DNA of 32,000 nucleotides. Source: Candidatus Electrothrix sp. GW3-4 (GTDB lineage: Bacteria > Desulfobacterota > Desulfobulbia > Desulfobulbales > Desulfobulbaceae). Each line of letters starts with the position of its first letter. Position 1 is the first letter of the stretch. Location: NCBI RefSeq assembly GCF_037902255.1, contig NZ_CP147990.1, forward strand, positions 1,890,001 through 1,922,000. The letters are read 5' to 3'. The notes beneath the pieces were generated by a model. It saw only the letters and a program-made list of their open reading frames with translations, was not told the DNA's origin and did no database searches. Shown here in pieces: positions 14,083 to 22,510 of this stretch. Both the position numbers and the translations under genes were made by a program.

Positions 14083-14086
14083 GTGG

Positions 14087-14213
14087 GCTTGGTTCTAAGT
14101 TTGGCCAATAGATTTACGACTGACACTTGGGAGAATAATAAGACTGTAAAATCAAGCATATTTACCTGGCAACACAGGTCGATCCAGCTAGGTGGCCGGA
14201 GTTAGAACCAAGC
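14087..14213 (+). repeat. 127-bp imperfect palindrome (degenerate solo attC-like or MITE-like element)
   Basis: The terminal arms are GCTTGGTTCTAAGTTTGGCC (14087-14106) and GGCCGGAGTTAGAACCAAGC (14194-14213). They pair over 20 positions with one mismatch and two G-T pairs. The right arm contains GTTAGAA (a GTTRRRY-like core), and the left arm contains TTCTAAG instead of the expected TTCTAAC. The element is bracketed by CATTGAGTGGGC at 14077-14088 and 14216-14227. Confidence 0.4.
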
Positions 14214-14367
14214 TCCATTGAGTGGGCATTGAAGCTGTCATGGGGATAATCTTGTGAATGAAAATATGCGGCGGTAGGAGAAGGAGTGAAAACGGTGCGA
14301 TCCCTAGCCTGTTTTCCATTTTAGCCTCTGTATATCATGATAAGAGGAAAAGCGGAGGTACAAGTTG

Positions 14368-14480
14368 ATAAGTGGAAACAGTTTCCACTTTTACTGCCTC
14401 AATATCTGAATAAGTGGATTTTTGCGGAATATATTACGGTCAATAGCAGGACAGTTTTCCACTTATTAATACTGTTAGCC
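14368..14480 (+). promoter_or_regulatory. attI-like junction or operator region: four copies of ATAAGTGGAAA followed by the crossover core GTTAGCC
   Basis: The four copies are ATAAGTGGAAAC (14368-14379, +), its inverted partner GTTTCCACTTTT (14381-14392), ATAAGTGGA (14410-14418, +) and TTTTCCACTTAT (14455-14466, inverted). The core GTTAGCC at 14474-14480 is the exact reverse complement of the R'' box (GGCTAAC) of the attC that closes the first cassette. Confidence 0.5.
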
Positions 14481-14495
14481 ATATAAGAGAGAGAA

Positions 14496-14855
14496 ATGGA
14501 TAATTCATTGTCACGTCAAGAAATTGTTGAGCTACTAGCAGATTTTGTTAGGGGGGCAATCAGCGAAGAGGATGATAAATACGTCGTAACAGTGACAAGA
14601 CGCGAATCTTCAATTCAGCTACATGCGTACTTTTCAGAAATTGATGAGCTTTCTCGAACATTATCTAGTCTTGAGGTTAATGATGAAACAGCTCTATATG
14701 GAGATACGCGGTATGAGATCATTGTAAGAGAAGAGTCCGTTGGCCCCATGCGTCGCATGAGGGAAGATAAGATTGAAGTACATAATGAAGAAAATGGCCT
14801 TGTTTATGAGCTTTCATCAGCATCAGATGAGTATCTAGTGCTCTGTAAAAGCTAA
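14496..14855 (+). CDS. Hypothetical acidic protein (119 aa); either the N-terminal part of the downstream HEPN-like gene or a separate partner
   Basis: This is the first ORF of cassette 1, with its ATG 15 nt after the GTTAGCC core. I recognise no family. The frame of the next ORF opens at 14849, only 4 nt before this ORF's stop (14853-14855), within and after an AAAA run (14847-14850). Confidence 0.5.
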   Translation: MDNSLSRQEIVELLADFVRGAISEEDDKYVVTVTRRESSIQLHAYFSEIDELSRTLSSLEVNDETALYGDTRYEIIVREESVGPMRRMREDKIEVHNEENGLVYELSSASDEYLVLCKS

Positions 14856-14908
14856 AATTTAGGATTGGTCGTTTCCGTAATTGTTCCATCTTTCGATTTG
14901 GTCCGGAA

Positions 14909-15883
14909 ATGGTAACCCTAAAATTTAGTCATGACTTAGCACTAGTTTGGCTTTTGAATGAAATTAAGCAAAATTTATCCTCAAGAGATTTTAGGTTAGG
15001 TTTTTACTATAGCCCAAGAATTGACAGATATTTAGATGAAGAAGATGAGGCAAATCTGATAGAGTTCATACGCTTAACGTCTTTCAGATTTCTGACACTA
15101 AAAATAACATCAGACAAAAAACATAGCCCTTTACAATATTCTAGGCTTACTCATGCATTCTTGTTCCACATCGGATTTAATCTAGACATAGCGTTGGTTC
15201 CTCAAAGGCTTCTAGAAGAAATTGCTAGAAGAGGAAGAATTACAAGAATGCGCCGCTCCAGGCCCGACGAAATTGATCCGCCTCGAAGGATATATAACGA
15301 GGACTTAGTTCAACATTATCTCCTTGCTGTATCTACTGACAATCCAGTTATTGAATTTCTCTCGTATTATCATGTGCTAGAGCACTTTTATGAAGCAGTA
15401 TTTAATGATGACCTGCTGGAAACAATCAAAGATAAAATTACTGATCCTGGGTTTTCATATAAACGAAAGAAGGATATCGGACAGTTAGTCAGCACTATAA
15501 AGCGTTCTCTTCAAATAAGAAGTGAAACCATTACATTCAGTGAAAGTGAAGCATTGAGGCTTTGCCTGCAAAAATATGTCGTGCTTCCTGATCTTATTTC
15601 AAAGCTGGAAGAATACGATGAGACTCTTTTGGATTATTACAGGTCCACGAAGGTAGAATTTTCAGGTGGTACTGAGGTGGATATTGAAAATACTGAAGAA
15701 GAAACAGTCTTTAAGTCACTGACTAAACGTATTTATTCTACAAGAAATGCCCTTGTGCATAGTAAAGACGGCGATAAGTCAAAATATACACCATTTAAAG
15801 ACGATAGAATATTAGTGAAAGAAGTTCCACTAATGAGGTTTATTTCTGAAATGGTTATTTTGCAAGAGTCAGTGGTTCAATAA
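14909..15883 (+). CDS. HEPN-like (Rx4H motif) putative RNase, ApeA / MAE_18760-like architecture
   Basis: 324-aa ORF. The C-terminal KRIYSTRNALVHSKDG contains R-N-x-L-x-H, the HEPN Rx4-6H catalytic motif. The upstream helix region FLSYYHVLEHFYEAVF resembles HEPN nuclease families I recall (Apea-like, MAE_28990/MAE_18760-like). There is no convincing SD before ATG 14909. Confidence 0.55.
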   Translation: MVTLKFSHDLALVWLLNEIKQNLSSRDFRLGFYYSPRIDRYLDEEDEANLIEFIRLTSFRFLTLKITSDKKHSPLQYSRLTHAFLFHIGFNLDIALVPQRLLEEIARRGRITRMRRSRPDEIDPPRRIYNEDLVQHYLLAVSTDNPVIEFLSYYHVLEHFYEAVFNDDLLETIKDKITDPGFSYKRKKDIGQLVSTIKRSLQIRSETITFSESEALRLCLQKYVVLPDLISKLEEYDETLLDYYRSTKVEFSGGTEVDIENTEEETVFKSLTKRIYSTRNALVHSKDGDKSKYTPFKDDRILVKEVPLMRFISEMVILQESVVQ

Positions 15884-15884
15884 T

Positions 15885-15992
15885 GGCTAACAAGGCAAAT
15901 TCACTCGGACAAATTTCCGCAACGTTCGTTTGTGCTATGAATAGCACAAGCCTCACGTCGCTTCAATTTGCCGGTGATTTTCGGCGTTATGT
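15885..15992 (+). repeat. attC recombination site (attC-a, 108 nt)
   Basis: The layout is: R'' GGCTAAC (15885-91), spacer AAGGC, L'' AAAT(T)CAC (15897-904), stem CGG(A)CAAATT (15906-15) / AATTTGCCG (15965-73), central hairpin TTGTGCTA-tgaa-TAGCACAA, L' GTGATTT (15974-80), spacer TCGGC, R' GTTATGT (15986-92). Bases in brackets are unpaired (extrahelical). The site starts 1 nt after the stop codon. Confidence 0.65.
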
Positions 15993-16035: not shown

Positions 16036-17862
16036 ATGATTATGTTTTTTGCTGAATATTCTCGACGATTATTAAATTTAAAGCAGATATGGTTACTTGT
16101 CATACCATTGTTAACTGGTATCGTTTTCACGCCAAATGTTAGCGCAAATATAAACCCACTTTCAATTATTGTTGATGATTATTCTCCAACTTCAACTTAT
16201 CGCAACTGGTATTATAGTCGAATTGGAACTGATAGGGGTGAGATGGGGGCAGATAATTATAATGTCATCATTGGTGGTGGAACTGCATCAGTTAATGTGA
16301 CAACTGGATGGGCTGGAGTCTGGACAAATTTAATGCACCTTGGAGGAGATACTTTAAACCCTACTCAATTATTAGGGCCTTATGTTAAACAAGAATATCA
16401 AGCTCAAGTCGTAGGTATTGAAATTGATATTCTCGATGGTTCAGGCACATTAAAGATTGAGTTAACTAATCAAATTGGCACACCGATACATACTAATTTG
16501 TTTTCATTGACAGGAGGAGAACAAACTTTAAGTTATCAAGTAAATCCTACAGAACCTCTAAAATCTCTCAATTGGTTGGTCGATGGTCCGGGTCATGTAA
16601 TTGTTGATGAAATCAGGCTAATGATTAATGCACCTGACTATCAAACCAAAGAAGCTATTTTTTTATTTTCCTACAGTCACCTTTCACAATGTTACGATGA
16701 TGCAACAGGACTTGTGAGGGACAGAGCGCGTTGGCCTGTAGAAGATTCAGCAGCGGTTCAATCTATAGGTATGTTTGCTCTTGTAACAGCTGTTGCTTAT
16801 GATTTAGGTTTTGTAGAGGAAAATATTGCTAACGCGATAGTAAATAAAACAAAAGAAAGACTTGGGTTGTTGCCAACATACAAAGGTTTGCTTCCTCACT
16901 TCTTAAAGAATGGGGATATTGCCCCAAATACAGAATGGTCAAGCGTAGATACTGTTATTGCGTTAGTTTCAAATATACTGGCAGCACAATCTCTTAATAT
17001 TGAAACGTCCAGTTTAGAATCAATGTTAACAGATATTGATTGGAGTGATTTATCTAATGGATTTACTGGCGGAATAAGCATGGGTTATGACTATTCTAAG
17101 GTTAAAATAACGAATACATGGGACACATTTGGCTCCGAGACTTTTCTTTTAGCTGTAGCATATGCTGCCGCTACCACTGGGAAAATAGCCATAATAGAGC
17201 AATATCCAAATAAACCAACATGGGATGGCTCTGGCTTTAATGATGAAATGGCAACATTATTCTTTCCAATGACCGGAAGAGATTATTGGGGAAATGACTG
17301 GAACAACTACAGGTGTTCAGCATTTAAAAAACAGTATGCATATTTTTTAAATAATAACACTTATTCTGACTTGGGTTTATTTGGGTTAAGTGCCTCGGAA
17401 GTACCAGAAAAATGGGCTGTTGCAAATGACGCAGATCATTATGCTGCATGGGGGGTTGGTGGGCATAACGGAGCAGCTAATGATGGAACTACTGTTGCGG
17501 GCTATCCTATAGTCGCACCACACTATGCTGCTTTAACCTGTAATGAACATTCCGCTTCCTGTGAAAAACTTTTTGAATTTATTGCATCAAATAATATTTT
17601 TACACCTTTAAACAATGTTGAATCATGTGGCATTACAGGAAGTGCGCTGAAATGGAGTTCATTAAAAGGATCATGGAATCTTGTGCTACAGGCACTCGGT
17701 GTAGGCAGGGCATTATCTGGGGTTAACTTTGTGTCATACCTGGCCCTGAAACAAAATAATTTCTTGTTAAATGGCTATAATTCAATTTTTACAGAATATG
17801 GTAAACCTTGTTCGTTCGTAATTCCACCTGGTTTGATTTTTCTTTTAAACTCCAACGAGTAA
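16036..17862 (+). CDS. Secreted (alpha/alpha)6-barrel glycoside-hydrolase-like protein (GH144 / DUF3131 'glucoamylase-like' family) with an N-terminal beta-rich domain
   Basis: 608-aa ORF with a signal peptide (…LLVIPLLTGIVFTPNVSA|NI). The order of blocks is GLVRDRARWP, SIGMFALVTAVAYDLGFV, LLPHFLKNGD, SSVDTVIALVSNILAAQ, DIDWSDL, FGSETFLLAVAYAAAT, GLFGLSASE and IVAPHYAALT. This order parallels what I recall of the PF10091/GH144 endo-beta-1,2-glucanase fold. The start may be ATG 16042, which has better spacing to AGGTGA. Confidence 0.6.
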   Translation: MIMFFAEYSRRLLNLKQIWLLVIPLLTGIVFTPNVSANINPLSIIVDDYSPTSTYRNWYYSRIGTDRGEMGADNYNVIIGGGTASVNVTTGWAGVWTNLMHLGGDTLNPTQLLGPYVKQEYQAQVVGIEIDILDGSGTLKIELTNQIGTPIHTNLFSLTGGEQTLSYQVNPTEPLKSLNWLVDGPGHVIVDEIRLMINAPDYQTKEAIFLFSYSHLSQCYDDATGLVRDRARWPVEDSAAVQSIGMFALVTAVAYDLGFVEENIANAIVNKTKERLGLLPTYKGLLPHFLKNGDIAPNTEWSSVDTVIALVSNILAAQSLNIETSSLESMLTDIDWSDLSNGFTGGISMGYDYSKVKITNTWDTFGSETFLLAVAYAAATTGKIAIIEQYPNKPTWDGSGFNDEMATLFFPMTGRDYWGNDWNNYRCSAFKKQYAYFLNNNTYSDLGLFGLSASEVPEKWAVANDADHYAAWGVGGHNGAANDGTTVAGYPIVAPHYAALTCNEHSASCEKLFEFIASNNIFTPLNNVESCGITGSALKWSSLKGSWNLVLQALGVGRALSGVNFVSYLALKQNNFLLNGYNSIFTEYGKPCSFVIPPGLIFLLNSNE

Positions 17863-17894
17863 AAAGGAGAGTTCAGCTTAACAGAGTCATCATC

Positions 17895-18016
17895 ACATAA
17901 CCAGTCGCTGCACCCGACCCGCTAACATCGGCGGAATTCGGATTGAAATTCAGGCTCCCGTCCCGCTTCGGGCATCGCGGTGATGCGGCGGCGGGCGCGT
18001 GAGCTTGGTGTTATAC
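17895..18016 (+). repeat. attC recombination site (attC-b, 122 nt)
   Basis: The layout is: R'' ACATAAC (17895-901), spacer CAGTC, L'' GCT(G)CAC (17907-13), stem CG(A)CCCGC / GCGGGCG, GC-rich branched centre (CCCG-cttc-GGG, GCATC-gcggt-GATGC), L' GTGAGC (17999-18004), spacer TTGGT, R' GTTATAC (18010-16). ACATAAC is the exact reverse complement of the preceding R' GTTATGT. Confidence 0.6.
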
Positions 18017-18026
18017 TGAATAAAAA

Positions 18027-18866
18027 ATGAATAATCACAAACCATTGTCATTTCAGTTGTCTACAAGTTCCTATGGCTATGTTAGGGCAATACCACTACT
18101 ACTTGCTAATGAGGTAAATTCTGAACTAGAACGTTGGTTTCAAAATTATAAATTATTATTCACTGCCATAAATAACCTAAAAGAAAGTGATTTCCAAAAA
18201 CATCTTCAACTTGAGTACACATATACTAGAAGAACCTTGCCTGTAAGAAAATATGATCAAATAGTTTCCGACGTAACAACTGAAAGCGATCTTCTCAACT
18301 ACCACCAACTCATTAAAATAATACATAAATATATTGAATTGTCTTACCGTATTTACAAATCACTCAAGGAAAAGAAAATAGGCACAAATATCACTGATTT
18401 TGAAAAACATATTGATCAAATTTGCTTGAAATTTCACAGGTCAAACTTCCCCAACAAACTCAACACCATATATGCAGACTTAAAACTGACTGATAATCTT
18501 GGGTATCTAGAGCAAATTAATAGAGTTAGAAATTGCTTGGAACATCGGTCTGGAATCGTATCGGAGAAAGACTGTGATGAAAATAAAAATTACATGTCAA
18601 TTAAATTTCGCTATCCTAAAATCTCAACTCCTTCTGGTGAATTCTCACCAACGTCTGACATAAAAGGAAAACAGAATCATTCAATAATATTCGAGGATGA
18701 AGTTATTAAATTTCGTTTAAATCAAAAAATCAATTTTGGTTTTGATGAAAACACTAAGCTATTGTTTTCGATAAACATTTGTTTCAAATATATCATTGAT
18801 GGCATTTACGACTTAATGAAAGTAGACCAAACTCAAACTGAAACCATAATAAGAGAAATAAAATAA
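18027..18866 (+). CDS. Hypothetical protein with a HEPN-like Rx4H motif (second putative RNase)
   Basis: 279-aa ORF that is the sole ORF of cassette 3. LEQINRVRNCLEHRSGIV contains R-N-x-L-x-H, the same spacing as in the cassette-1 protein. The flanks are helical and K/E/N-rich. I recognise no other family. Confidence 0.5.
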   Translation: MNNHKPLSFQLSTSSYGYVRAIPLLLANEVNSELERWFQNYKLLFTAINNLKESDFQKHLQLEYTYTRRTLPVRKYDQIVSDVTTESDLLNYHQLIKIIHKYIELSYRIYKSLKEKKIGTNITDFEKHIDQICLKFHRSNFPNKLNTIYADLKLTDNLGYLEQINRVRNCLEHRSGIVSEKDCDENKNYMSIKFRYPKISTPSGEFSPTSDIKGKQNHSIIFEDEVIKFRLNQKINFGFDENTKLLFSINICFKYIIDGIYDLMKVDQTQTETIIREIK

Positions 18867-18930
18867 GTATAACCAGCCAATAAACGCGGACCCGCAAACA
18901 GCGCGCGGGCCGGTTATCGCAACGTTAGGG
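18867..18930 (+). repeat. attC recombination site (attC-c, 64 nt)
   Basis: The site starts directly after the stop codon. The layout is: R'' GTATAAC (18867-73), spacer CAGCC, L'' ATAA(A)C, stem CGG(A)CCCGC (18887-95) / GCGGGCCG (18905-12), L' GTTAT, R' GTTAGGG (18924-30). GTATAAC is the exact reverse complement of the preceding R' GTTATAC. Confidence 0.6.
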
Positions 18931-19107
18931 GCGGCAGGAATTCCTGTGGGTGCATCCGCAGTTTGAGACGGAGTATTGATGCTACATGCTATGCAGAGAT
19001 GCAGAATGATAAACTGAAAAAAAAGCACTACCTGCTGCGCGGACAAAAATATTTCTGATTATCTTAAAAACCCTCATAACCCACTCAAAGTATACAACAC
19101 CAATAAT

Positions 19108-20190: not shown

Positions 20191-21198
20191 GCATCTCTGG
20201 CTTTTCGGTTTTCTCCACTGCCCAAGACCTGCCTGCAAGCTGGGACAAGGCCTGCGATGACAATCCCTTTCTTTGCCGATCCGTGCTCATAATCCTGGAA
20301 CAGGTTAATCCCACAGGACAACGCTATTACCTGCTTGAAAAAAGAGAAGAAGCCTCTCTCTTCATGACCTACCAACATCGGCTGGATATCTTCACCTACG
20401 GTCCTGGCAGCCTGCGTCTTCCTGTGACTATCCTGGGAGTTCCCTGCTCGGTTTCCTGGCCAGGTCTACAGATTCAAGAACAGGACAGAGAGGCATTCCA
20501 ACAGGCTTTGCAAGAAATCCCCGGAGCCGTGCTCATCCTTAACGACAAAGCCCCCCCTCCCCTCTTCATCAAGCTATGCTCAGGGGCTCACCCTGCCCAA
20601 CTGCGAGCTGGATATCCAAGGGCTTAATTTTTCCGCTTATCTTGACAAAATGCGCAGCCATTACCGCTATAAACTCCGCTCTTCAATGAAACGCTTTCAA
20701 GGGGTAACAACCAAGATCCTTCAGGACAACAGGGAGTTTAACAGCCAGCTCTACCAACTTTATGAACAGGTGTATGAGCGCTCGGAATTCAAGCTGGAAA
20801 AACTGCCCCTGAGTTTTTTCCAGGATTTTCCGGCGACCATCTCTGTTTTCTCAACAGAGGATCAAGTACTTGGCTTTACCCAAACCATGTTCAGCAATCA
20901 AGGGGGCAAGAAAGAGCAGATCTTTCTCTTTGGCGGCCTGGATTATGCATTGAACAAAGAGTTTCACACCTATATCAACCTGCTCCTCCATGTCGTGAGA
21001 ACAGGGATGGGACAAGGAGCTGACCGGATTAATATGGGCCAGACCGCCGAGGATGTGAAGACCAGATTGGGATGCACTCTGCATCGCCGTTATCTCTATG
21101 CTCGTCACGCAAACCCGGTGATTCATTTCCTGGTTCGCCGAGGAATTGGCTTACTCAGCTATACAGCACCGCTTGCAGAACGGCATGTTTTCCGGTAA
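20187..21198 (+). CDS. FemAB-like / DUF482-type GNAT acyltransferase, interrupted by an apparent single-base frameshift (track ORFs 20187..20627 and 20650..21198)
   Basis: The downstream frame is open from 20428 and reads …YAQGLTLPNCELDIQGLNFSAYLDKMRSHYRYKLR across the first ORF's stop. The total length is 1012 nt, which is 3n+1. Removing one C from the C7 run (20551-20557) gives a continuous 336-aa protein. Confidence 0.6.
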
Positions 21199-22510
21199 GA
21201 CCGCCCGGATCCTGCTGGTACGTCCCCAATATAACACTGGCCTGAGCCGATTTGCCTCCATCAGCACGGAGCCGCTGGAGCTTGAATATTTGGCCACAGC
21301 AGTGACGGAGCAAGGGCATCATTATCGGGTCTGGGATAGCCAGTTTGATGGTTCCTTTGCCCGAGTGTGCAGATCCTATCAGCCAGATATGGTGGTTATT
21401 ACCGGCTATTATCCGGCCCGTGATGAAATGCTGGCCTCTGCCCGCAGGGCAAGGCAGATCTGTCCGGAAACGATTATTATCGTCGGTGGGGTACATGCCG
21501 AACTCAATCAGGAAAATTTCTATTATCCTGCGGTAAATCTTATCGTTTATTCAGGTGGAGCATTGACCTTTCAGGAAATCCTTGCTAAGGAACGAGCTGA
21601 TTGGCCAAACCTTGCTGGTATATCATGGCAGGATGAGCAAGGCCGATGGCAAAAAAATCCAAGGGCTAGCTTTAACCCTAAAAATCTTCCCCTGCCGGAT
21701 CGCAGCTATTTTACCAAACATAAAGAGCGGTTCACCTGGCTCTACCACGGTCCAACAGCTCTGGTCAAGACAGGCTTTGGTTGTCCCTATAACTGCTCTT
21801 TCTGTTACTGCCGCCTGCTCAACAACGGAACCTACCAAGCACGGGATGTGGAAGATGTGGTTACGGAAATCGAAAAAATCGACTGTCCGGTTATATGGCT
21901 GATTGACGATACCTTTCTCCTTGATATCCAGCGGCTGCGTTGTTTTGCTGCTGAGCTCGTTCGCCAGAAAATAAAGCGAAAATTTATTCTTTACGGGCGG
22001 GCTGATTTTATCAGCGAACACCCTGAAGTACTGCCCATGCTCCAGGAGATGGGAGTCATTGAGGTTATTGTTGGCTTGGAAGCTATTGACGACAAGGGCC
22101 TTCGGGAGTTTAATAAACAGGTTAACGCGAAGCAGAATCGACGCTGCGTGTCCCTGCTCAGACAATATGATATCGGCTGTGTGGGCCTGTTTATCATGGA
22201 TCAACAGGCAAGGGCTGCAGATTTTCGTAGGCTCGATTGCTGGATACAAGAGGTTGGATTAACGACGTACACGATTTCCGTGTTCAGCCCCTTTCCTGGT
22301 ACTGAGGAGTACCCTTCCCTGGTCGATCAACTCCTCACCACCGACTGCCGAAAATGGGATCTCCTGCACCTGGTGCTGCCAACGAGCCACCTCACCCGCC
22401 TCGGATTTATGGGGAGGATCTGGTGGCTCCACTGCAAACTGCTCTGGCGTAACCGCAAACTGCGTCGGCACCTGCTGACCACGGCTTTGACATATTGGAA
22501 AAAAGAATGA
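21185..22510 (+). CDS. B12-binding domain / radical SAM protein
   Basis: The N-terminal cobalamin-binding-like domain has RILLVRPQYN…EPLELEYLATAV…VVITGYY…IIVGGVHAE. The radical SAM cluster motif is GCPYNCSFCYC (CxxxCxxC). I prefer ATG 21185, which overlaps the upstream stop by 14 nt, over 21146. Confidence 0.85.
   Translation: MFSGKTARILLVRPQYNTGLSRFASISTEPLELEYLATAVTEQGHHYRVWDSQFDGSFARVCRSYQPDMVVITGYYPARDEMLASARRARQICPETIIIVGGVHAELNQENFYYPAVNLIVYSGGALTFQEILAKERADWPNLAGISWQDEQGRWQKNPRASFNPKNLPLPDRSYFTKHKERFTWLYHGPTALVKTGFGCPYNCSFCYCRLLNNGTYQARDVEDVVTEIEKIDCPVIWLIDDTFLLDIQRLRCFAAELVRQKIKRKFILYGRADFISEHPEVLPMLQEMGVIEVIVGLEAIDDKGLREFNKQVNAKQNRRCVSLLRQYDIGCVGLFIMDQQARAADFRRLDCWIQEVGLTTYTISVFSPFPGTEEYPSLVDQLLTTDCRKWDLLHLVLPTSHLTRLGFMGRIWWLHCKLLWRNRKLRRHLLTTALTYWKKE

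Follow-up and report, generated by a model that had tools for sequence, protein, structure and literature searches.

A miniature transposable element interrupts an integron-cassette gene of an uncharacterised, candidate HEPN-type protein family in a cable bacterium

Two open reading frames at the locus

The window analysed here is a stretch of 32,000 nucleotides (32 kb) from the cable bacterium Candidatus Electrothrix sp. GW3-4 (contig NZ_CP147990.1, positions 1,890,001 to 1,922,000, forward strand), and all coordinates below refer to it. Its positions 14496 to 15883 hold two consecutive open reading frames (ORFs), ORF1 and ORF2, which we read as the two halves of one integron-cassette gene, split by a miniature inverted-repeat transposable element (MITE). 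The only 100%-identical database entry is P0014, the 324-aa product of ORF2 from this same organism. The features of the interrupted gene are as follows.

14496-14855 (+): ORF1, 119 aa, with 27 Asp and Glu against 13 Lys and Arg residues; isoelectric point (pI) 4.4
14909-15883 (+): ORF2, 324 aa
14496-14838 (+): 5' part of the interrupted gene, codons 1-114 and the first base of codon 115; acidic alpha/beta N-terminal domain
14835-14838 (no strand assigned): left copy of the target-site duplication, CTAG at both ends
14839-14941 (no strand assigned): element of 103 nt classed as an IS630-type MITE; holds the ORF1 stop codon (14853-55), an AAAA run (14847-50) and the ORF2 ATG (14909)
14942-14945 (no strand assigned): right copy of the target-site duplication, CTAG at both ends
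14946-15883 (+): 3' part of the interrupted gene, from the rest of codon 115 to the stop; basic middle region, loop RRGRITRMRRSR and MauJ/HEPN-like C-terminal domain

The initial annotation had proposed that the two ORFs were a single 462-aa gene broken by a one-base slip at the AAAA run or, alternatively, that the acidic ORF1 was a separate antitoxin or immunity partner of a HEPN toxin. The sequence facts on which it built are all correct: the ORF coordinates, the acidity of ORF1, the frame of ORF2 (closed by TAA at 14846-48 and open from 14849), the position of the AAAA run and the length of the span 14496-15883, which is 1388 nt (3n-1).

The two ORFs are halves of one gene

A first homologue search, for which the fused 462-aa translation served as the query, found 325 relatives, the best of which, at 73-78% identity and 100% query coverage, are single 426-aa proteins. 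An exhaustive profile search extended the set to 1763 relatives at E<=0.001, and those at E<1e-30 fall into 481 clusters at 50% identity. Of the 268 family proteins retrieved, 239 measure 410-450 aa (median 426). When aligned, the homologues run straight from ...ASDEY-L-(I/V) into WLLNEIK..., and the window alone carries 36 extra residues at this point. The 5' part of the gene (14496-14838) aligns to residues 1-115 of the single-chain ~426-aa homologues, and once 14839-14945 is deleted the reading frame spans 426 aa, with 84.3% identity to P0001, the nearest homologue, and zero gaps. The residues that are invariant in the family are all kept in the window copy. Judged by these homologues, positions 14496-15883 are one gene of an uncharacterised ~426-aa family. 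The proposal that the two ORFs form one broken gene is thus borne out, the homologues being single proteins across both of them. The proposed product of 462 aa is not: the true product is 426 aa long, about 36 residues of the fusion being derived from the transposon.

An IS630-type MITE caused the interruption

The net insertion amounts to 107 nt, that is, the element plus one CTAG; it lies at a CTAG spanning codons 114-115 and shifts the frame. Four homologous loci (L025, L026, L030 and L033) show an exact gap of 107 nt at the insertion point, and their empty-site sequence reads GATGAGTAY/CTNRTYTGG (the slash marks the site). The element itself is small and has no coding capacity. Its terminal inverted repeats, TGCTCTGTAAAAGCTAAAATTTAGG and, as reverse complement, TGCTAAGTCATGACTAAATTTTAGG, are imperfect and extend over about 25-32 nt; a repeat finder delimits arms of 32 nt that are 75% complementary, CTAG included.

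To this local evidence can be added the distribution of the element. A scan with a pattern taken from both of its ends, covering one genome per species, matched 24 loci, mostly in Candidatus Electrothrix (eight in YB6, others in aarhusensis, laxa, marina and several metagenome-assembled genomes), and many of the matches form pairs, one on each strand, separated by about 74 nt. Twelve further full-length copies were recognised in Electrothrix genomes; they are 102-103 nt long and 70-87% identical, and they lie in unrelated flanking DNA. Eleven of the twelve have the same four bases at both ends (CTAG, CTAT, ATAG or CTAC), the remaining one, at L010, having CTAG at one end and ATAG at the other. 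IS630 elements classically duplicate TA only, whereas here the four flanking bases co-vary on both sides, and the duplication is therefore read as 4 bp. A likely relative with coding capacity is an insertion sequence (IS) of 1222 bp in Electrothrix sp. YB6 (L007:4157-5378, CP178758.1), which is flanked by CTAG and has MITE-like ends (TGCTCTGTCAGATC... and TGCTATGTAAAAGCTAAATTTTAG...). It encodes an HTH_32 ORF and a DDE_3 ORF, which is the layout of IS630-family transposases, and on general knowledge of that family we take it to be of IS630 type.

Because of the inverted repeats, the copies at unrelated sites with their duplications, the empty sites and this parent-like IS, we identify the interruption as a non-autonomous MITE of IS630 type. 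The insertion is probably recent, since the invariant residues are all intact and the target duplication is perfect. Some results weigh against this reconstruction. A metagenome scan with an exact 26-mer found no uninterrupted allele from the same species, and a scan with a degenerate junction pattern recovered only the known P0001 allele, again with no intact allele from this species; moreover, the collection scanned for copies of the element did not include the GW3-4 genome.

The empty sites also bear on how the gene was broken. The arithmetic of the initial annotation fits a single-base slip, or a sequencing error, in the AAAA run at 14847-50, as one added A joins both frames into 462 codons. 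Such a model needs homologues that carry LCKKLKFRIGRF... in frame, but the homologues are 426 aa rather than 462 aa long and are without the entire 107-nt segment that holds the A-run, a segment which moreover recurs as a mobile element, has terminal inverted repeats and is flanked by a target duplication. The slip is refuted by the empty-site alignment, the A-run being located inside the 103-nt MITE, and we attach practically no probability to it.

Hardly better placed is the idea of a two-gene module, in which an acidic 119-aa antitoxin or immunity protein would accompany a 324-aa HEPN toxin. Toxin-antitoxin pairs are common in integron cassettes and ORF1, with its pI of 4.4, is suitably acidic. 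Yet in nearly all relatives ORF1 corresponds to the N-terminal domain of the same polypeptide, both the stop of ORF1 and the start of ORF2 are MITE sequence, and ORF1 has no antitoxin match in PADLOC, Pfam or NCBIfam. Being the N-terminal domain of single-chain relatives, ORF1 is therefore not an antitoxin, and we reject the two-gene module as highly improbable.

Some further observations concern the element family. At least eight copies are present among the YB6 loci sampled, and no second copy was found within the window. The two ORFs (HTH_32 and DDE_3) of the 1222-bp YB6 element are probably joined by a frameshift, and a truncated copy of a related MITE lies about 120 nt downstream of it (L007:4157-5589).

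The window copy is most likely a pseudogene

As a consequence of its position, the MITE supplies a stop codon for the N-terminal fragment and a fortuitous ATG for the 324-aa remainder. Neither a good Shine-Dalgarno sequence upstream of ATG 14909 nor a promoter-like site just upstream of it was found, the former agreeing with what had been noted in the initial annotation; a scan for promoters and terminators around the MITE remained at background level, with nothing within the element. Because the element has no promoter-like site and ATG 14909 no Shine-Dalgarno sequence before it, we regard the window copy as a pseudogene, most likely a dead gene inactivated by the MITE.

One could instead suppose that the MITE has reshaped the gene, a 324-aa protein made from the MITE-borne ATG 14909 keeping some activity and the 119-aa fragment perhaps acting in trans. 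Both fragments are indeed still open, all invariant residues are retained and the 324-aa product is listed as a protein in the public record (P0014). Apart from the missing Shine-Dalgarno sequence and promoter-like site, this supposition is opposed by the place of the cut, which falls at the start of a predicted helix and puts eleven MITE-encoded residues in place of native sequence, and by the expectation that an unregulated HEPN fragment would be toxic or misfolded. We give it only a slim chance.

The locus is best annotated as one MITE-interrupted pseudogene, neither as two hypothetical proteins nor as a homopolymer frameshift. Copies of this small element are dispersed over the genomes of cable bacteria, where they will split further genes likewise. 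As a pseudogene the window copy is ordinary; the remaining interest resides in the large, unnamed and uncharacterised family to which it belongs.

The C-terminal domain resembles HEPN nucleases

The 3' part of the gene encodes KRIYSTRNALVHSKDG at 15728-15775, in which the initial annotation had recognised the Rx4-6H signature of HEPN RNases; it had also noted a helical region resembling HEPN nucleases of the ApeA/MAE type.

15743-15760 (+): R-N-A-L-V-H (Rx4H) motif, R codon at 15743-45 and H codon at 15758-60; R381, N382, V385 and H386 invariant in alignment A2

Alignment A2 comprises 41 homologues down to 44% identity, and since the R, N, V and H of the motif are invariant throughout, R-N-A-L-V-H is evidently not a chance match. 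Y256, H257 and E260 are invariant in the same alignment.

Profile comparisons point in a similar direction. The best match to a known defence protein is that of the PADLOC DzbB model (E = 1.6e-15), which pairs ORF2 residues 127-298 with model positions 183-316 of 341, and the PADLOC Cas13-ApeA model matches the motif region (E = 9.5e-4). The Pfam family MauJ (PF17419) matches 40 of the 41 family members at E<0.01, some of them above its cutoff (P0268 at 28.8 bits and a Priestia MauJ protein at 33.6 bits), and a PF17419 match is precomputed for the identical protein P0014. Sub-threshold matches of the Pfam family HEPN_Apea over the motif recur in relatives. A PGAP-annotated MauJ protein on a plasmid of Priestia megaterium is 36% identical over residues 222-423 (E = 3e-28).

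HEPN domains are described as having a helix that ends in an Rx4-6H motif, then a loop and terminal helices, with a conserved acidic residue in an earlier helix and inserts allowed between helices 2 and 3 (PMC3710099). An AlphaFold2 (AF2) model of the C-terminal 205 aa of the window copy, with a predicted local distance difference test score (pLDDT) of 87.5, agrees with this description in the placement of the motif, the earlier acidic residue and the insert. In the model, helix 145-165 ends with R160...H165 and is followed by a loop (166-179) and the last helices (180-200), the invariant E39 and E43 lie in helices 27-59, an invariant H is found in the preceding helices, and a helical insert occupies 68-127.

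Several results nevertheless count against a HEPN assignment. Foldseek searches of the PDB returned chance-level matches only, with the full-length model as well as with the C-terminal model, and the full-length model had no significant match in BFVD; known HEPN proteins appeared in the fold searches only at E>1. A profile search of PDB sequences gave two spurious matches and no solved relative, and neither NCBIfam nor PHROGs matched ORF1, ORF2 or an intact homologue. On ORF2 itself both Pfam matches fall below their cutoffs, MauJ scoring 26.6 bits against 28 (residues 135-314) and HEPN_Apea 13.8 bits against 24.4 (over the motif region), and the Pfam name MauJ comes from operon context, with no demonstrated activity. 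Furthermore, a dzbB deletion of the Dazbog system could not be transformed, possibly owing to toxicity, which hints, by analogy, that DzbB may act by holding its partner in check and not by killing the cell; because of this untransformable deletion, a restraining, non-catalytic role of this domain type is conceivable.

These points lend themselves to an alternative in which the MauJ/DzbB-like domain is no nuclease and belongs to a regulatory or nucleic-acid-binding family that would use its Rx4H-like motif for binding. The lack of a fold-level match to HEPN enzymes, the suggestion that DzbB is a restraining partner and the strongly conserved Arg-rich loop described below, itself suggestive of nucleic-acid binding, are in keeping with it. 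It is at odds with the invariant R, N and H, which, along with invariant E and H residues of an earlier helix, make up the catalytic HEPN pattern (PMC3710099), and with the repeated matches of ApeA-type HEPN models to exactly the motif region. We consider this alternative rather unlikely and favour, with some reserve, the reading of the C-terminal domain as a HEPN-type nuclease domain. The HEPN-like, ApeA/MAE-type character proposed at the outset is thereby supported by the invariant motif and the weak ApeA-type profile matches. Of the checks that had been suggested with it, the profile searches yielded the MauJ and DzbB matches and left HEPN_Apea below its cutoff, and the search for the HEPN fold with Foldseek gave no significant match, so that the call stands at the level of motif and profile.

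Three regions and a conserved disordered loop

The AF2 model of full-length P0001 (pLDDT 80.8) comprises an N-terminal region of ~110 aa, a middle region of ~115 aa and the C-terminal domain. The first of these contains an alpha/beta domain of strands and helices at about 7-108, where pLDDT is mostly 84-94; the middle region is mixed, and the C-terminal domain that follows is helical. The loop RRGRITRMRRSR (residues 209-221 of P0001) is predicted to be disordered yet strongly conserved. The longer segment to which it belongs, RRGRIxRMRRSRxxExDPPRR (P0001 209-229; ~15230-15290 in the window), is almost invariant in A2 with pLDDT <50. Because conservation and disorder are an unusual mix, this Arg-rich segment suggests a nucleic-acid-binding or autoinhibitory role.

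The gene belongs to an integron cassette

The gene is framed by the boundaries of an integron cassette, for which the criterion was G/TTRRRY (the slash marks the crossover).

14475-15986 (+): integron gene cassette 1, from crossover G/TTAGCC (14474-80) to crossover G/TTATGT (15986-92)
15885-15992 (+): attC of cassette 1, GGCTAAC ... ATTCACTCGGAC ... GCCGGTGAT ... GGCGTTATGT, directly after the stop codon
14396-14481 (+): upstream attC-like hairpin ending GTTAGCC, the site to which cassette 1 is joined; bottom strand -15.5 kcal/mol, z = -3.28
~17880-18016 and 18866-18932: further attC-like sites

Cassette 1 is 1512 bp long now and measured 1405 bp before the MITE insertion. Its attC (GGCTAAC...GTTATGT) has paired R''/L'' and L'/R' boxes, and the bottom strand forms a long imperfect hairpin (-21.6 kcal/mol, z = -3.75). 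The homologous attC sites have a variable centre, with z = -5.17 at L025 and z = -3.2 at L026; that of L033 is degraded (z = -1.5). Conservation among the window, L025, L026 and L030-33 is confined to the cassette boundaries. Upstream of the gene these loci have in common only .../TTAGCCAtAaAAaG...ATG (TTAGCC...ATG) and downstream the block GGCTAAC...GGCG/TTAT, the flanks outside G/TTAGCC and GGCG/TTAT being unrelated. A gene and attC conserved amid unrelated flanks are the signature of one cassette inserted in different arrays. By this signature the gene and its own attC move together as an integron cassette, and the cassette context recognised in the initial annotation holds.

The array forms a low-GC island at ~14.2-19.0 kb (36-40% against ~50% GC), with three cassettes and at least four attC-like sites between 14200 and 19000, set among core chromosomal genes (gyrA, gpsA, comEC, Kdo transferase, M18 aminopeptidase, radical-SAM genes and others). 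When all large ORFs of the 32-kb window were scanned with Pfam, none matched Phage_integrase, and hence neither an integron integrase nor a tyrosine recombinase was found; the array thus presents itself as an attC cluster that lacks a visible integrase. A scan of the window against Rfam returned no family.

The other two cassettes of the array encode proteins of their own. The second cassette ORF (16036-17862, +) is, at 608 aa, unusually large for a cassette and begins with a signal-peptide-like N-terminus; it has no match in Pfam, PADLOC or PHROGs, and in NCBIfam only one far below threshold. The third cassette ORF (18027-18866, +; 279 aa), with no match in Pfam, PADLOC, NCBIfam or PHROGs, contains an Rx4H-like motif, NRVRNCLEHRSG; the array may include a further HEPN-like cassette here, unrelated to the first. 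Upstream of cassette 1, about 410 nt of non-coding DNA (14083-14495) bear repeated AAGTGGA(A/T) boxes and a perfect 21-nt palindrome, AAGTGGAAACAGTTTCCACTT, at 14370-14390; this stretch could be an empty cassette, an attI remnant or a protein-binding region. Elsewhere in the window, a GNAT-like ORF (20650-21198) and a B12-binding radical-SAM ORF (21146-22510, +) overlap by about 50 nt in different frames.

Homologues occur in mobile surroundings

No neighbouring gene is conserved across the nine homologous loci examined, and a PADLOC scan found no DzbA-like or other partner among the neighbours in the window. That the module is self-contained, as had been proposed, is in line with this lack of a conserved partner gene beside the homologues. 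An 884-aa N6 methyltransferase lies near the homologue at L026 and a Dam-type methylase near that of Pseudomonas (L036). In Dyella sp. ASV21 (L037, JAELTT010000042.1, 1-17281) the homologue is located two genes downstream of a tyrosine integrase, in a region that also encodes a 1128-aa KAP NTPase, a VbhA-like antitoxin ORF and a cytosine DNA methylase and that looks like a defence or mobile island. The MauJ protein of the Priestia megaterium plasmid adjoins a CHAT-domain protein, and one homologue is encoded by a conjugative plasmid of a cyanobacterium. Such surroundings are in keeping with a conflict gene that is mobile and stands alone.

Proposed function of the family

Taken together, the observations are best explained jointly by one cassette gene of the ~426-aa family, interrupted by a MITE and recently turned into a pseudogene, whose ancestral product would have been a self-contained HEPN-type RNase; we hold this joint explanation to be very probable. 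By analogy with ApeA, the ancestral protein would be a self-regulated single-protein nuclease. Its helical C-terminal domain, resembling those of MauJ, DzbB and ApeA, would carry the catalytic pair R381 and H386, and the acidic N-terminal domain and Arg-rich middle could act as sensor, regulator or inhibitor, or nucleic-acid binder, keeping the nuclease off until triggered. Activation would, again as for ApeA, lead to cleavage of cellular RNA, for example tRNA, and to growth arrest, which would serve phage defence or cassette maintenance.

We tentatively extend this analogy to the whole family, which might represent a new single-gene anti-phage system of the abortive-infection type composed of an acidic sensor, an Arg-rich loop and a MauJ/DzbB-type HEPN RNase; we rate this as possible rather than probable. 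The family (at least 481 clusters at 50% identity, all unnamed) could spread as an integron cassette among sediment and soil bacteria, cable bacteria included. If this holds, the widespread Pfam MauJ domain would have to be re-read as a HEPN nuclease module, and the MITE insertion in GW3-4 would exemplify the switching-off of a costly defence gene. The domain of the family links MauJ, Dazbog DzbB and ApeA-type HEPN nucleases. With its single gene the family lends itself to inexpensive screens for defence or toxin activity, the results of which could also assign a function to the MauJ domain.

Comparison with known systems

Like other IS630-family MITEs, the 103-nt element is short, non-coding and multi-copy, it has terminal inverted repeats and inserts at CTAG/NTAN with duplication, and its ends resemble those of a larger IS, here the 1222-bp element with its HTH and DDE_3 transposase.

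Among defence systems, ApeA is one of the closest parallels. It is a single-protein HEPN anti-phage system, a tRNA anticodon nuclease that is inactive until a ligand binds. Like ApeA, the cassette protein stands alone with no partner gene and combines a non-catalytic N-terminal region with a C-terminal HEPN-type Rx4H domain, and both Pfam HEPN_Apea and PADLOC Cas13-ApeA match its motif region weakly. The HEPN_Apea matches of the cassette family differ from those expected of ApeA in being all below the curated cutoff, and in place of the ~300-aa beta-rich N-terminal domain of ApeA the cassette protein has an acidic domain of ~110 aa and a basic Arg-rich middle. Membership of ApeA itself was rejected, the ~300-aa N-terminal domain of ApeA finding no Pfam match in the cassette protein.

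Dazbog consists of DzbA, which has a DUF262 domain, and DzbB, and the cassette protein has only the C-terminal domain in common with DzbB. Neither DUF262 nor DzbA turned up near the gene in the window or beside the nine homologues examined, so that the gene is not a Dazbog system; the partial DzbB match (183-316 of 341) led to the same rejection.

With MauJ (PF17419, 'methylamine utilization protein MauJ') the family shares the C-terminal 200 residues, over which 40 of the 41 members match. It differs in that about 70 residues are inserted into this domain and two N-terminal regions are added.

Finally, HEPN proteins encoded by integron cassettes have been described before, namely the PDB 3jrt family, the AbiV-like brcN and an AbiU2-HEPN cassette. 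A PDB sequence search detected no sequence relation to these proteins, and the cassette protein, with 426 aa and three regions, is much larger. What unites them is the arrangement as a HEPN-type single-gene cassette. A role in stress dormancy was proposed earlier for such cassettes, and several HEPN integron cassettes have been shown experimentally to protect against phages.

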